A stretch of DNA of 64,000 bases from Vicinamibacterales bacterium (GTDB lineage: Bacteria > Acidobacteriota > Vicinamibacteria > Vicinamibacterales > CAZQMT01). The stretch lies in NCBI GenBank assembly GCA_965197935.1, contig CBDAOD010000002.1, positions 1,668,464-1,732,463 on the forward strand, in the 5' to 3' direction. The translations under genes and the position numbers were made by a program. Of this stretch, positions 19,359 to 25,159 are shown one piece after another. Numbering within the stretch: the stretch's first letter is position 1; the number at the start of each line of letters is the position of its first letter. The notes under the pieces are model-generated. The model searched no databases, was not told where the DNA came from, and saw nothing but the letters and a program-made list of their open reading frames with translations.

Positions 19359-19558
19359 GGTTCGGCTGACGCCGGCTCGGGCATCCGCACTCGGCGGACA
19401 CGCGCGCGGTGACGGAAGGTCGATTATAGCGTCGGATCGACTCGGACGGCTGGAACGAATGCCGTCGAAATTGCGAGATGGAACACGTAGACTGGGGCCA
19501 TCGTCGGCGGTCGTCCCGCGCCCGCGCCACGTGGGCGGGCCTTACCCTGGGAGGGACC

Positions 19559-21601
19559 ATGAGGATACCGTCCGGTCGCCGTTTCATCCCACTGTGTCTG
19601 GTGGTGTCTGCCGTCGCGTCCGTCGCGGTCGCCGGATCGGGTCGGGACCGACTCACCGTCGAGCGGTATCTCGACTGGGAGGAGGTGGCCAATCCCCAGG
19701 TGGCGCCCGACGGCGGTCGGGTGGTCTACGAGCGCCGCTGGGTGGACGCGATTCATGACCGGTGGGAGACCGCGCTCTGGATCGTGAACGCCGACGGCAC
19801 CAAGCACCGGTTCCTGGTCGACGGCGCGAATCCCCGGTGGTCGCCCGATGGCACGCGAGTCGCCTACCTAGCGGAGGGCGAGCCGAGCGGTCGCCAGATC
19901 TTCGTTCGGTGGATGGATGAAGAGGGCGCCGTCAGCCAGGTGACCCGCGTGCGAGAGGCGCCGGCGGATCTGACCTGGTCTCCGGATGGCAAGTCTCTCG
20001 CGTTCCAAATGGTGGTGGCGCCGCCGGATGACGGGCGCTGGGACATCGCCATGCCCGAGGAGCCGACGGGTGCCGAGTGGACGGCGCCGCCGAAGATCGT
20101 CGATCGGCTCCACTACCGCCAGGACCGCATCGGCTACCTCCCGGATGGGTTCCGGCAGCTCTTCGTGGTCGCTGCCGATGGGGGTACACCGCGCCAGGTG
20201 ACGACCGGCGACTGGCACCACGATAATTTCCGCTGGATGCCTGATGGTCGCACCATCGTCTTCGATTCCCTGCGCGTCGAGGACGCCGCGTACCAGTGGC
20301 GCGAATCCGAGGTCTATGCCGTGTCTCTCGAGACCGGAGAGGTGACGCAGATCTCCAGCCGGCGTGGTCCCGATCGCGGCCCGGTGCCCTCGCCCGACGG
20401 GGGTCTCATCGCGTACACGGGCCACGACTGGACCGACGATACCTACGTCGAAGAAGGCGTCTACGTGATGAACGCCGACGGCTCGGCGCCGCGCCGGATC
20501 GCGAGCGAGATGGGACGCCGCCCGGCCAACGTGATCTGGGCCGAGGACGGGACTGGCGTGTACTTCACGGCGCAGCTGAAGGGAACCTCGAATCTCCACT
20601 TTGCCCCGCTCGATGGCGGGCCGCGGCCGGTCACCGTGGGCGCGCACATGCTGAGCGTCACCGACGTGGCGTCCGGCCTGGCCGTGGGGACGCTGGCGAG
20701 CCATCACGTGCCCGGCAACCTCGTGGCTTTCGGGCTCGACGCGCCCGGCGAGCGCCGCACCCTTCACGAGTCGAACCGCGGCGTCCTGGCGGAGGTCGAG
20801 CTCGGCGACGTCGAGGAGATCTGGTACGACTCGGTGGACGACCTCGAGATCCACGGTTGGATCGTCAAGCCGCCGGATTTCGACCCTTCCAAGAAGTACC
20901 CGTTGGTCCTGAGAATCCACGGGGGGCCTCACTCCATGTACAGCGTGGCCTTCGACTTCAAGAACCATAATCACGCCGCCAACGGCTACGTCGTGCTCTA
21001 CACGAACCCACGCGGCAGCGCCGGCTACGGCAGCGCGTTCGGTAACGCCATCAAGAACGCCTACCCCGACAAGGATTACGACGACTTGATGGCCGGTGTC
21101 GACGAGATCGTTTCGCGTGGTTATATCGACGAGCGCAATCTGTTCGTGTATGGCGGCAGCGGTGGTGGCGTGCTCACGGCCTGGATCGTGGGCCACACCG
21201 ACCGTTTCACTGCCGCCGTTTCGAAGGCCCCCGTCATCAACGGGCTCAGCTTCGTCGGTACGACCGACGGCCCGTCCTGGTATTACAACTTCGCCAGGCT
21301 CCCGTGGGAGGATCCGGCGGAGCACCTGCGTCGGTCGCCGCTGATGTACGTGGGGAACGTGACCACGCCCACGCTGCTCATGACTGGCGAGAAGGATCTA
21401 CGGACTCCGATGGAGCAGACCGAGCAGTTTTATCGCGCCTTGACGCTGCGCAAGGTTCCTACGGCCATGATTCGCCTGACGGACGGCTGGCACAGCCGCA
21501 GCCTGCCGCCGACCAACTTGATGCGGGTGCAGCTGCACCTGCGGAGCTGGTTCGAGCGCTTCAGGGTGGTAGACGACCTGTCGACGCAGGAAGAGCCATG
21601 A
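19559..21601 (+). CDS. S9-family dipeptidyl/acylaminoacyl peptidase with beta-propeller
   Basis: WSPDG repeats, IHGGPH, NPRGS.GYG, GGSGGG, GEKDLRTP, GWH. Confidence 0.93.
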   Translation: MRIPSGRRFIPLCLVVSAVASVAVAGSGRDRLTVERYLDWEEVANPQVAPDGGRVVYERRWVDAIHDRWETALWIVNADGTKHRFLVDGANPRWSPDGTRVAYLAEGEPSGRQIFVRWMDEEGAVSQVTRVREAPADLTWSPDGKSLAFQMVVAPPDDGRWDIAMPEEPTGAEWTAPPKIVDRLHYRQDRIGYLPDGFRQLFVVAADGGTPRQVTTGDWHHDNFRWMPDGRTIVFDSLRVEDAAYQWRESEVYAVSLETGEVTQISSRRGPDRGPVPSPDGGLIAYTGHDWTDDTYVEEGVYVMNADGSAPRRIASEMGRRPANVIWAEDGTGVYFTAQLKGTSNLHFAPLDGGPRPVTVGAHMLSVTDVASGLAVGTLASHHVPGNLVAFGLDAPGERRTLHESNRGVLAEVELGDVEEIWYDSVDDLEIHGWIVKPPDFDPSKKYPLVLRIHGGPHSMYSVAFDFKNHNHAANGYVVLYTNPRGSAGYGSAFGNAIKNAYPDKDYDDLMAGVDEIVSRGYIDERNLFVYGGSGGGVLTAWIVGHTDRFTAAVSKAPVINGLSFVGTTDGPSWYYNFARLPWEDPAEHLRRSPLMYVGNVTTPTLLMTGEKDLRTPMEQTEQFYRALTLRKVPTAMIRLTDGWHSRSLPPTNLMRVQLHLRSWFERFRVVDDLSTQEEP

Positions 21602-21658
21602 ACGACGCCGAGGACCCGATCGATGAGGGGACGTCACGCGACGAGAGGAGGGATCGCC

Positions 21659-23074
21659 ATGCGCCGAGGCTCATCCGTGCTGGTCGTGGGGTTGCTCGCG
21701 ACGGCCGTCTCGGTCGGTGTCGGGACCCGGCAGGCGCCCGATCTGGCAGAGACGTATCGCGAGCCCGCCGGCCAGATCCTGGGTGCGGCGCTGACCGACG
21801 TCGACGGCTGGGAGAAACTGACGCACTTGACCACCCAGATCGGCAACCGGCTCAGCGGGTCCACGGGGTTGGAGCGTGCGATCGACTGGGCATTTGCCGC
21901 GATGCAGGACGAAGATCTGGAGAACGTGCGGCGGCAGCCCGTGAAGGTGCCGCACTGGGTGCGCGGGAACGAGCGCGCCGAGGTCGTGGCGCCCGTCGAG
22001 CGGCCGCTGAGTATCCTGGGGTTGGGGGGCAGCGTGGCGACGCCTCCGGCGGGCGTTACCGCCCCCGTCGTCGTCGTGGGCAGCTTCGACGAGCTCGAGG
22101 CGCGTGGACGAGCCGACATCGAGGGCAAGATCGTCCTCTACGCCGTCCCCTGGATGGGATACGGTCGCACCGTGCAGTATCGGGCGAACGGCGCCTCTCG
22201 TGCGGCAGCCCTCGGCGCCGTGGCCACCCTGGTGCGATCGGCAACGGGTAGAAGCCTGAACACCCCTCACACCGGCGCGCTCCGCTACGCCGCCGACGCG
22301 CCGAGGATCCCGGCCGCGGCCGTGACGGTCGAAGATGCCGCGTGGATGCGCCGCATGGCCGAGGCGGGACGGGAGGTGCGCGTGGCGCTGCACATGGAGG
22401 CCGACACACTGCCCGAGGCCGACTCCGCGAACCTGATGGCCGAGATCCGTGGCCGCGAGCGACCCGAGGAGGTCGTCGTCATGGGCGGGCACTTCGACTC
22501 GTGGGACGTGGGGCAGGGCGCCCACGACGACGGCGCCGCGTGCATGGCGGCCTGGCAGGCCCTTGTCATCATCCAGCAGCTCGGTCTGCGGCCGCGCCGC
22601 ACGCTTCGGGTCGTGCTCTGGACCAACGAGGAGAACGGTCTGGGCGGAGGGCGTGCGTACCGCGACATGGTCGGGGCGGCGATCGGCGACCATGTCGCTG
22701 CCATCGAGATGGATGGAGGAGCCGAGCGTCCCGTCGGGATGGGGTTCGGACTCGACCGTGTGGAGCCGGGAGACGCGCAGGACCCGAGCTACGAAGCCGC
22801 ATACCTGAAGCTGCAGCAGATCGGTCGACTGCTCGAGGGCATCGATGCCGGTGAGGTGAGCCGTGGTGGTGGCGGCGCGGACATCGGCCCGTTGATGCGG
22901 GACGGTGTGCCTGGGCTTGCGCTGCGGACCGTCGGCGAACATTACTTCGATTGGCACCACACCCAGTCCGACACGCTGGACAAGGTGGATCCCACGGACT
23001 TTCGGAGGGCCATCGCCCTGCTCGGCGTCTATGGCTACGTGCTCGCGGACATGCCGGACCGGCTCGTTCCATGA
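21659..23074 (+). CDS. M28-family carboxypeptidase Q-like metallopeptidase
   Basis: IGNRLSGS, GGHFDSWDVGQGAHDDG, NEENGL, AAIEMD, YFDWHHTQSDTLDK. Confidence 0.93.
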   Translation: MRRGSSVLVVGLLATAVSVGVGTRQAPDLAETYREPAGQILGAALTDVDGWEKLTHLTTQIGNRLSGSTGLERAIDWAFAAMQDEDLENVRRQPVKVPHWVRGNERAEVVAPVERPLSILGLGGSVATPPAGVTAPVVVVGSFDELEARGRADIEGKIVLYAVPWMGYGRTVQYRANGASRAAALGAVATLVRSATGRSLNTPHTGALRYAADAPRIPAAAVTVEDAAWMRRMAEAGREVRVALHMEADTLPEADSANLMAEIRGRERPEEVVVMGGHFDSWDVGQGAHDDGAACMAAWQALVIIQQLGLRPRRTLRVVLWTNEENGLGGGRAYRDMVGAAIGDHVAAIEMDGGAERPVGMGFGLDRVEPGDAQDPSYEAAYLKLQQIGRLLEGIDAGEVSRGGGGADIGPLMRDGVPGLALRTVGEHYFDWHHTQSDTLDKVDPTDFRRAIALLGVYGYVLADMPDRLVP

Positions 23075-23115
23075 CTCGAGGACGGCAACGGCCGCCGGGT
23101 GGGGGAGCGGCTGGA

Positions 23116-23144
23116 TTGACATCGGGGACGTCATGACGAACGAT
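23116..23144 (+). promoter_or_regulatory. Candidate sigma70 promoter of the small-RNA unit
   Basis: TTGACA (23116-23121), 17-bp spacer, AACGAT (23139-23144). Confidence 0.5.
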
Positions 23145-23257
23145 AGGTGTTGACGTTCCGCGCGCGGCGCGGCGGCTGCAGTCGGGCTTGGGCGGCCCGG
23201 TGGCCGGGTGGGTTGGGACCCACCACTCATGGTACGCCCGGCAAAGGAGGTGATCCG

Positions 23258-23302
23258 GTGGACGACATTAGTCGAAGGTTCGCGGAGGTGGCGTCCTCGT
23301 AG
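23258..23302 (+). CDS. Putative small peptide MDDISRRFAEVASS
   Basis: GTG...TAG directly behind a perfect extended Shine-Dalgarno. Confidence 0.45.
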   Translation: MDDISRRFAEVASS

Positions 23303-23382
23303 GGACCTCCAGCGCTCTGTAGTGGCGCAGCGGAGGGAGTCCCCATTGCGGGGAAACCCAACGCCACTGAAGCAGACCGGAG

Positions 23383-23418
23383 AGGGCCTCGATCCCACGG
23401 GATCGAGGCCCTTTTTTT
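23383..23418 (+). terminator. Rho-independent terminator
   Basis: AGGGCCTCGATCC-CACG-GGATCGAGGCCCT followed by a T run. Confidence 0.9.
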
Positions 23419-23433
23419 CGCGAGGATCGAATC

Positions 23434-24171
23434 GTGACCGAGAGCGGCGCCTACAGATTCGGCCGGATGGTCGGCGGCAAGCTACGCCGGGCCAAGTGGA
23501 TGTGGGAGTCGCTTGCCGGGAGCGAGGACGAGGGCATTCGGGCGGAGTACGGCGTCGGTCGTGAGATGGCGGCGGCCGTTCGCGCGCGGGCCCCGCACGA
23601 TCCGGATCCGCAGCTCCAGGCCTTTCTCGACGAGATCCGGGTCCCACTCGCGCGGTCGGTGCGGAACCGGCTTCATCGTTTCGAGGTGACGTCCGTCGTC
23701 GAGGATCATCCGACGGCGTTTGCCCTCCCGGGTGGCTTCATCTTCGTGGCGCGGTCCCTCGTGGAGCTCTGCGATCGGAACCGGGACGAGACCGCGTTCG
23801 TGATCGCCCACGAGATGGCCCACGTCATCCGGCGCCACGCGATCAATCGGGTGCTGACGGAGACGGCCCTGTCGGCGGCGGCCCTGGCCTCTCCCGGCCG
23901 GGGCTGGTTCGTGCCCTGGATCCGCAAGGTGGGGCTTCAGGCGCTGGAACGCGCCCATTCCCGGGAGCAGGAGTTCGAGGCCGACGCGTTGGGCCTGCGG
24001 CTCGTGCGTGCGGCGGGCTTCGACGCGGCCGGTGCCGTCCGCCTGCTCGAGCGTCTCCGTCGACTCGACCCGACCCCGGACCGCTCTGGGCTGGGTGAGT
24101 ATTTCTCGAGCCACCCGGCCTTCGACGAGCGCATCCGGGAGCTGCGCCGCCGGGCGCCGCGCCCGGCCTGA
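23434..24171 (+). CDS. M48-family zinc metallopeptidase
   Basis: AFALPGGFIFV, AHEMAH, SREQEFEAD, FSSHP...ERI. Confidence 0.9.
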   Translation: MTESGAYRFGRMVGGKLRRAKWMWESLAGSEDEGIRAEYGVGREMAAAVRARAPHDPDPQLQAFLDEIRVPLARSVRNRLHRFEVTSVVEDHPTAFALPGGFIFVARSLVELCDRNRDETAFVIAHEMAHVIRRHAINRVLTETALSAAALASPGRGWFVPWIRKVGLQALERAHSREQEFEADALGLRLVRAAGFDAAGAVRLLERLRRLDPTPDRSGLGEYFSSHPAFDERIRELRRRAPRPA

Positions 24172-24180
24172 CTGGCTCCC

Positions 24181-25159
24181 TCAGTCGTCCTCCACCAGCC
24201 GCAGGAACTCCGGATCGTCGTGGAGCGCAGCGAAGGCCTCGTTGGCGGGAAGCTGGTGTCTGTTGGCCGGGTTGAGCTCCACCGCGCGACGAAGGGCCGC
24301 CAGCGCCTCCGCCCGGTGACCCAGGCGCAGCCGCACGTCGGCGATGGCGACCCAGGCGCTGTCGCCCTCGGGAAACAGATCGCGCGTCCGGATGGCAATC
24401 GCCAGCGCCCCTTCGAGGTCACCCTCGACAATCTTCGGCCGAACGCCCCTGATCAATGCTCTCGCGCGAAACGCCGCCAGGACTCGCCGGAGCTCGGTCA
24501 GCGGCCGCTCGTGCTCATCCACCCGCAAGTCGAGAACACGGTCGCTATATCCTCCGGCCCCGGCGAGCGGCTTGAGGACCATCAGCGAAGCCGATTGCGT
24601 CCCGCGCTTGTCCCCGCCTGCCGCCTGCGCCGCGTCGAGCGCGTCCAGGAGGCGTTCTGCCAGCGGACCGCTCGTCGATTCGACCGAGCGTGCCATCGCC
24701 TCGACGACCTCGGGTCCGGCGAGCGTATTGCCTTGCGCACAATAGCTCTCGCCGCACGCGTGGCCTTTCCAATCGGTGATGTCGGGACTGGTCCAGGCGG
24801 CCGTCCGCCCCTGGATGTCGAGAATCGCGACCTGCCGACGGTTGCGGTCCTCGTCGCCGCGCAGCATCATGTCCAGCGCCTGCTGCGGCGCCATACCGGC
24901 CTCGAGCAGCTCGATCCCGATCGCGCTGTACATCGGGTTGGAGGCGGCCTGGTGCGCGAAGATGGCCAGGCCACCCTTGCCGCCTCGCGTGCGGCTCCCA
25001 CCGCGACCGTCTTCGATTGGACCCGATGCCGAGCTCGCCCGTCGCCGGGTCTCTCGCAATGATTGAGAACGTTCCGTCGTGGTCGGGATCATAGTCCTGC
25101 GCCATCGCCACCGACACGCACAGGGGGAACAACAGGGCCAGGATGCTGCGTCTTCTCAT
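24181..25159 (-). CDS. DUF1028 (Ntn-hydrolase-like) protein with C-terminal TPR (two frameshifts at ~25022 and ~24998)
   Basis: TFSIIARDPATGELG, RQVAILD, AQGNTLAG, ALDAAQAAGGDKRGTQSA, DLRVDEH. Confidence 0.85.

Follow-up and report, generated by a model that had tools for sequence, protein, structure and literature searches.

The window, i.e. the whole stretch of 64,000 nt from a Vicinamibacterales bacterium analyzed here, contains a free-standing gene (23116–23418, + strand) that encodes a folded RNA of about 266 bases. The element is found within a row of peptidase genes (19478–25092). Direct reading of the sequence located the promoter, the 5′ hairpin, the extended Shine-Dalgarno (SD) site, the short open reading frame (ORF), and a second GGAGGTG just where the original prediction had placed them. 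The genes and features of the locus, with the RNA helices numbered P1 to P4, are as follows:

19478–21601: S9 peptidase gene
21623–23074: M28 peptidase gene with PA domain
23116–23121 and 23139–23144, + strand: promoter, TTGACA and AACGAT separated by a 17-nt spacer (direct sequence reading)
23158–23172, + strand: predicted hairpin P1, CCGCGC-GCG-GCGCGG (minimum-energy fold)
23173–23206, + strand: predicted stem-loop P2 with conserved GGGCG (23190–23194) in or near the loop (minimum-energy fold of the window RNA)
23207–23224, + strand: predicted hairpin P3, GGUGGG/CCCACC, with conserved loop UUGGGA
23243–23256, + strand: extended SD site AAAGGAGGTGATCC, 14 nt, perfect complement of the 16S rRNA 3′ tail of the same genome
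23258–23302, + strand: ORF of 14 codons with GTG start and TAG stop, peptide MDDISRRFAEVASS (direct sequence reading)
23277–23294, + strand: predicted 5′ strand of helix P4 (ORF codons 7–13), partner 23361–23378
23303–23355, + strand: predicted variable inner hairpins past the stop (CCUCC:GGAGG, GCGC:GCGC, CCCC/GGGG)
23356–23360, + strand: conserved ACCCA, candidate pseudoknot partner of the P3 loop UGGG
23361–23378, + strand: predicted 3′ strand of P4, ACGCCACU, GA, AGCAGACC
23379–23418, + strand: intrinsic terminator, 17-bp hairpin (23379–23416) and seven T (fold −31.6 kcal/mol, z −5.8)
23434–24171: M48 gene
24181–25092, − strand: DUF1028 and TPR gene

Relatives of the element were collected in several ways. 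By blastn, it was detected in seven of 61 genomes of the order, its own genome counted. A species-level scan (one genome per species) with a 19-letter pattern of the ORF end, which did not include the SD, gave at least 111 stretches; in at least 82 of them, the extended SD and a start codon were located upstream at a fixed distance; apart from one truncated copy, the remaining matches listed lay within genes by chance. Metagenomes were scanned with a 21-letter pattern of the 3′ domain, independent of SD and ORF. Among the 107 stretches found, 69 had the SD, start, and ORF within the 150 nt inspected; by eye, the others comprised about 20 copies of the same RNA with a long insertion past the stop, two SD variants with an inserted base, one stretch lacking a stop, six that were too short, and nine unrelated ones. 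A covariance model (R1) was positive in eight of 121 genomes of the order and in 24 of 151 genomes of the phylum, where the distribution was patchy: some families were fully positive (5/5, 6/6, and 2/2), others empty (0/8 and 0/10). It was also positive in 11 of 41 genomes from the phylum of an Eisenbacteria-titled metagenome-assembled genome (MAG). Every positive genome held a single copy. Among the matches listed, record titles named Vicinamibacterales, Vicinamibacteria, Thermoanaerobaculia, ‘Acidobacteria’, Candidatus Eisenbacteria, and a few other single MAGs. Collecting homologues and building a covariance model had been proposed as a check on the element; the two pattern scans and the model together gave well over 150 relatives with covarying helices, which excludes a chance origin.

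Some loci stood out during this collection. One subgroup has a TAA stop and an insertion of roughly 60–100 nt (by eye) between the stop and a conserved GGGG-AACCCA box (L149, L160, L161, L173, L182, L195, L201, L207, L209, L223, L224, L229, L231, L236, L238, L239, L241, and L252). Locus L014 (G198:C1, around 3001264, + strand) is a second, unrelated unit in a genome that has a true family member at G198:C1:259291–259468. It consists of a short direct repeat, GGAGGAGGTGATCC, one base, GTG, an ORF of 15 codons, TAG, and a terminator-like hairpin, and reaches only 11 bits with model R1. At L011 (G190:C1, around 1728385, − strand), a 17-letter match to the SD plus start lies inside an apparent longer coding region with a G run and is probably a chance match or a frameshift site of an IS element.

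The element is an independent transcription unit. Of 86 distinct upstream regions of relatives, 62 contain a perfect TTGACA at a constant distance from the SD (−127 to −152); in the window, the −10 hexamer AACGAT agrees with TATAAT at three of six positions. A hairpin followed by a T-rich run was found in 69 of 81 distinct 3′ regions, and the inferred transcripts of relatives have a median length of 266 nt. The claim of a strong terminator at the end of the unit is borne out by the fold energy and the seven T given above. A consensus promoter and terminator scan of the window listed neither the TTGACA promoter nor the terminator of the element. A subgroup of Vicinamibacterales (L023, L036, L062, L064, and L100; also L060, L095, and L121) has a longer GC-rich 3′ extension in place of the simple hairpin and T-run.

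The M48 gene (Pfam PF01435, 3.9 × 10−28) starts at 23434, only 15 nt past the T-run, and the same holds just past the terminator in a same-genus relative. This position is what speaks for a cis-acting leader or attenuator of the protease gene, one of the roles considered in the original prediction. However, M48 follows the element in just one of 87 other loci, namely in that relative, and the synteny of the window's neighbors was likewise found among relatives solely in the same-genus genome. When neighbors were clustered over about 87 loci, no family was common to more than 14; Pfam assigned peptidases in the window, and a symporter and a beta-propeller protein at other loci. For 28 of 61 downstream genes called (by a rough GC3-based gene call), the coding strand was opposite to that of the element. 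Nor did inspection of the window and the alignments reveal another pairing able to compete with the terminator. Since the neighboring genes are not conserved, the element is not an attenuator of M48; this reading is already largely refuted and hardly credible any longer.

Metatranscriptome contigs of 81–232 nt covered relatives of the element and contained no flanking sequence. These contigs stem from three RNA libraries of three studies and from a fourth library whose RNA label was guessed. Their confinement to the element is a weak hint of expression; such contigs cannot prove transcription or transcript ends. In a search of sequencing runs, the full stretch was found solely in two likely source runs, and parts left uncovered were not counted as evidence.

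The most conspicuous part of the transcript is its SD site, whose 14 nt had been described as a perfect complement of the usual 16S rRNA end and do match the tail of the 16S rRNA of their own genome. In the window, the 14-mer occurred once with up to one mismatch allowed (0.01 expected). Its 13-mer was found twice in the 6.54-Mb genome, the second copy being the 16S gene itself, and the 10-mer GGAGGTGATC has 58 copies, nearly all of which lie within coding sequence and are not SD sites. The extended SD is present in all of the at least 82 elements recovered by the ORF-end pattern without the SD, in the 69 elements from the 3′-domain pattern, and, among the divergent members detected by the covariance model, in 16 of 16.

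When G-U pairs are counted, the pairing in the window spans 17 nt and reaches the start codon, the G of GTG being included through a G-U pair; for 39 of 129 relatives, Watson-Crick pairs alone suffice to reach the start codon. In 89 of 129 elements, an A occupies the spacer position and thereby extends the complementarity. Measured for all 129 distinct members against the 16S tail of the window genome, the commonest contiguous Watson-Crick run was 15 nt (50 members), runs of 16–17 nt occurred in two, and the pairing comprised 14–19 nt with G-U pairs included.

Among 115 distinct strings from SD to stop, variants of the SD 13-mer were changes from A to G or from C to T, which retain pairing with the 16S tail as G-U; exceptions were one T to C change among the 115 strings and one further exception among the divergent members. 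The search patterns permitted only some substitutions in the SD, so this restriction to wobble-type changes is partly circular. Neither of two independent scans lost an element through a G to A change. That a 13-nt SD varies by wobble changes only over more than 100 sequences amounts to natural evidence for selection on pairing with the complete 16S tail. Thermodynamic folding did not predict an open SD (mean unpaired probability 0.38, compared with 0.32 for the whole RNA), and fold prediction found no consistent partner masking the SD, the predicted partners being inconsistent.

One base past the SD 14-mer begins the GTG-initiated ORF. Its length is conserved: of 113 distinct ORFs, 101 have 14 codons, seven have 13, four have 15, and one has 12, so that lengths differ by whole codons only. 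The stop codons of these ORFs are TAG (95), TAA (15), or TGA (3). Relatives start with GTG or TTG; no ATG start was observed in 69 and 16 cases in which ATG was permitted, nor among the matches of the ORF-end scan listed. Within the variable codons 2–9, one of 63 distinct sequences had a stop in frame 0, as compared with 12 and 43 for the two alternative frames. Openness, length, and frame are thus kept, showing that the ORF is selected to be readable. Two loci deviate, L093 with an in-frame stop at codon 8 and L204, which has lost the stop and reads TAT AGG; decay of these copies or errors in assembly may be the cause. Past the stop, the +1 frame is open in the window (ORF 23208–23564) and broken by indels in relatives.

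The encoded peptide is only weakly constrained. Of the peptide conservation raised in the original prediction, length and frame were confirmed, but the residues are poorly conserved and E-V-A alone is invariant. As predicted for the window, the peptides are not hydrophobic: relatives encode polar or acidic ones with a high content of Ser and Gly. A type I toxin mRNA was rejected on account of this polar or acidic character.

It is nevertheless conceivable that the 14-residue peptide is the functional product of a plain micropeptide gene, with the RNA features tuning its amount. Such a role would fit the excess of synonymous changes in codons 2–6, where close pairs, which are not mutually independent, showed 44 synonymous and 77 non-synonymous single differences (36% synonymous, 17% expected), and the bias of residues 2–3 to polar and acidic types. 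A published parallel is provided by the rre small mRNAs, i.e. rreB of Bradyrhizobiaceae and rreR of Rhodobacterales (Hahn et al., RNA Biol 14:1353, PMC5711450), whose peptides are reported to be conserved inside their clades (section 18). Yet the codons of E-V-A fall within helix P4b, positions 4–6 and the last two residues vary widely, and about 95 nt of covarying 5′ structure together with a putatively pseudoknotted 3′ domain exceed the needs of an mRNA for 14 residues. Synthesized RreB and RreR peptides were, moreover, unstructured according to sections 13 and 18 of the same article. We consider a pure micropeptide gene quite unlikely.

Conservation of the ORF also bears on the idea that the RNA is a sponge, titrating or protecting the 16S 3′ tail or the 30S subunit without meaningful translation. 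The complementarity spans the whole free tail and, even in the GAUCC part, is maintained by wobble changes; the promoter is strong; and rreB was mainly found in the ribosome fraction (PMC5711450, abstract). Against this stand the interchange of stop codons, the maintained frame and length, and the avoidance of stops, which show ribosomes reading through to the stop, as well as the single gene copy facing thousands of ribosomes. According to the Discussion of PMC5711450, overexpression of rreB left growth unchanged, which argues against simple ribosome sequestration as proposed in the original prediction, and its authors judged that recruiting ribosomes to block translation did not rank among the main functions of rreB. 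A sponge is therefore very improbable.

Alignments show a covariation-supported predicted fold composed of P1, P3, and the bipartite long-range helix P4. On a 76-sequence alignment (A3), P1 was paired in 89.9% of cells, with four of five pairs changing on both sides. GGGCGG is nearly invariant in A3, and a candidate pairing of GGGCG with CGCCC (23235–23239), paired in 80.3% of cells, is weakly supported. With MAFFT alignments of the 5′ domain, RNAalifold performed poorly, since these misaligned P1 and P2. P3 was paired in 98–99% of cells, all of its pairs covary, and one pair has 27–28 compensatory cells. The 5′ hairpin of the original prediction thus survives in its GGTGGG/CCCACC part, conserved as P3, but its outer stem, GCCGGG:CCCGGC, is present in the window and kept in only 14 of 76 relatives.

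The predicted helix P4 joins the last two-thirds of the ORF with the segment preceding the terminator. Changes in its 3′ strand almost all preserve pairing. P4b was paired in 99.3% of cells and had two truly compensatory pairs after divergent members were added; in P4a, all seven pairs change on both sides. The second GGAGGTG (23284–23290) is part of P4 and is lost in two of the 16 divergent members. P4 takes the place of the multibranch fold proposed previously, in which TCCGGT was to pair with ACCGGA (23376–23381); that pairing is kept in one of 76 relatives. The inner hairpins (23303–23355) are poorly aligned, with 42–88% of cells paired, and some relatives have a long insertion in this region. 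For the conserved GGGG, alignment analysis did not distinguish a local hairpin with CCCC from pairing with CCUC at the end of the ORF. ACCCA and the UGGG of the P3 loop were paired in 96.9% of cells, both sides being nearly invariant with one compensatory change at one pair, and a pseudoknot between them is plausible.

On alignment A5, 85.8% of cells were paired overall, compared with 41–51% with slid partners, and the covariation score was 0.323 as against 0.04–0.09. Because A5 had been fitted to the model, its counts of pairs are biased in favor of the structure, and part of the invariance reflects retrieval because loci were recovered by pattern scans. The central claim of the original prediction, a self-contained structured unit that combines an extreme SD with a genuine short ORF, is upheld by the conserved signatures of promoter, terminator, fold, and ORF.

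The arrangement of P4 raises another possibility, namely a translation-gated riboregulator: passage of the ribosome would open P4 and the pseudoknot and free the 3′ strand (ACCCA-ACGCCAC...CGCAGACC) for action in trans on RNAs or proteins, so that the RNA would report translation capacity. This would agree with the conservation of ORF length and openness without that of the peptide, with the formation of P4 from the 3′ two-thirds of the ORF and the most conserved segment outside the SD, and with the independence of the gene from its neighbors. However, intramolecular pairing already accounts for the conservation of the 3′ strand, no chaperone site was identified, and the missing growth phenotype of rreB overexpression (PMC5711450, Discussion) weighs against it. 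We regard such a riboregulator as unlikely.

Taken together, the element is probably an independent, single-copy gene for a ribosome-docking small mRNA of the rre type, about 266 nt in length. It is a larger, structured, and uncatalogued version of the published alpha-proteobacterial rre design, located outside the alpha-proteobacteria. New with respect to rre are the 5′ domain of roughly 95 nt with covarying helices and the helix P4 in the path of the translating ribosome. Among the roles named in the original prediction, engagement of the ribosome proved the most plausible theme, the published analogue rreB co-sedimenting with 30S subunits (PMC5711450).

In the mechanism that we propose, the extended SD would dock 30S subunits very tightly, and the over-long SD together with the non-AUG start would hold translation weak, both mainly by analogy with rreB. 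A stable P4, beginning at codon 7, may damp translation further. A translating ribosome would have to unwind P4, and ribosome engagement and the folded state would therefore be mutually exclusive. Engagement of the ribosome probably governs the turnover or conformation of the RNA itself. Binding of 30S subunits, weak translation, and ribosome-dependent turnover are carried over here from rreB, an alpha-proteobacterial RNA that is not homologous. As the covariation-backed fold couples the ORF physically to a structured domain, the ribosome as the unwinder of a switch helix becomes testable.

A more far-reaching and rather doubtful possibility is that this family, rre, and CC2171 (see below) belong to a single widespread class of ribosome-docking mini-mRNAs, ancient or repeatedly evolved. 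The ribosome would then be the ligand, and the RNA would measure free ribosomes or initiation capacity and convert them into a regulatory output. Pairing with the full 16S tail would park the subunit in front of a roadblock helix, passage over the fixed track of 14 codons would open the pseudoknotted domain, and the output would consist in the decay of the RNA itself or in exposure of the conserved 3′ strand.

Several known classes of RNA resemble the element in part. ARAGORN detected neither a tRNA nor a tmRNA in the window, and tmRNA was rejected as a candidate; an ordinary tmRNA with the tag ANTQLALAA is encoded elsewhere in the genome. In leader-peptide attenuators such as trpL and ermCL, a short ORF with a good SD precedes a terminator and translation is set against RNA pairing. 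The window RNA differs from these in lacking a conserved regulated gene and regulatory codons; inspection revealed no antiterminator, and the genes downstream of its relatives often lie on the other strand. Structured small RNAs that also carry a translated short ORF are represented by SgrS/SgrT and RNAIII/hld. In contrast to these, the window RNA has no known base-pairing target and its peptide is poorly conserved; to our knowledge, an extreme SD is not a feature of either.

At gathering scores, Rfam gave no match in the window, as the original prediction had anticipated in being unable to assign a family; what it missed were a weak match to CC2171 (RF01867) and the published rre design. Because the family is absent from Rfam, such an RNA can readily be mistaken for a leader, a riboswitch, or an attenuator acting on whichever gene is located downstream. 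The CC2171 match, the best among the weak ones, scored 20.9 bits, with a gathering score of 75 (E = 0.023 in a 501-nt search and 0.07 genome-wide); other Rfam matches by E-value were terminator look-alikes. Model R1 aligned weakly (10–20 bits) with eight alpha-proteobacterial CC2171 RNAs that we fetched (L133–L140). All eight have CAACAA-like bases, a 16S complement of 13–14 nt, one base, and GTG, ATG, or TTG, followed by TC[TC] as second codon in ORFs of 22–30 codons. Like the window RNA, CC2171 has the core of SD, one spacer base, and start codon and a long-range helix around the ORF that closes right before the terminator. It differs in its longer ORFs, in its occasional ATG start, in the lack of the 5′ domain P1–P3, and in the helix, which starts at about codon 3 in the Rfam consensus as compared with codon 7 for P4. 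At one CC2171 locus (L137), a bipartite helix from codon 7 was seen as in the acidobacterial family. According to the available part of a preprint, the CC2171 sRNA, a Caulobacter RNA, was confirmed by Northern blot in Methylorubrum (bioRxiv 10.1101/2022.01.24.477521).

The closest design is that of rre, which our literature searches for rre small mRNAs found described by Hahn et al. only, and for alpha-proteobacteria only; searches with the letters of the 16S complement returned only lists of primers and oligonucleotides. In the available sections of PMC5711450, rreB is a weakly translated 165-nt mRNA with a 17-nt SD, a GTG start, and an ORF for 14 amino acids, which is stabilized by removal of its start codon and whose function the authors call elusive. 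Judged by these sections, the window RNA shares with rre (i) the status of a small independent transcript that has a promoter and a terminator of its own; (ii) an SD that spans the free 16S tail up to the start codon; (iii) a very short ORF with a GTG start right behind the SD, 14 codons long in rreB likewise; and (iv) a lack of conserved genomic context across wider groups. The hallmark of at least 16 nt of perfect complementarity (16–17 nt in Hahn et al.) is not reached by the window SD, which has 14 perfect pairs, or 17 with G-U pairs. On the same basis, no sequence homology is detectable between the two, and the peptide is much less conserved in the window family than in rre. The window RNA is also about 100 nt longer than rreB and has the covarying 5′ domain of 95 nt, the predicted bipartite helix that would lock ORF codons 7–13, and a likely pseudoknot. 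Finally, the hosts differ: relatives of rre are reported in alpha-proteobacteria only in the sections available, whereas the family described here is found in Acidobacteriota and in Eisenbacteria-titled MAGs, extending the rre design past the alpha-proteobacteria into two further phyla.
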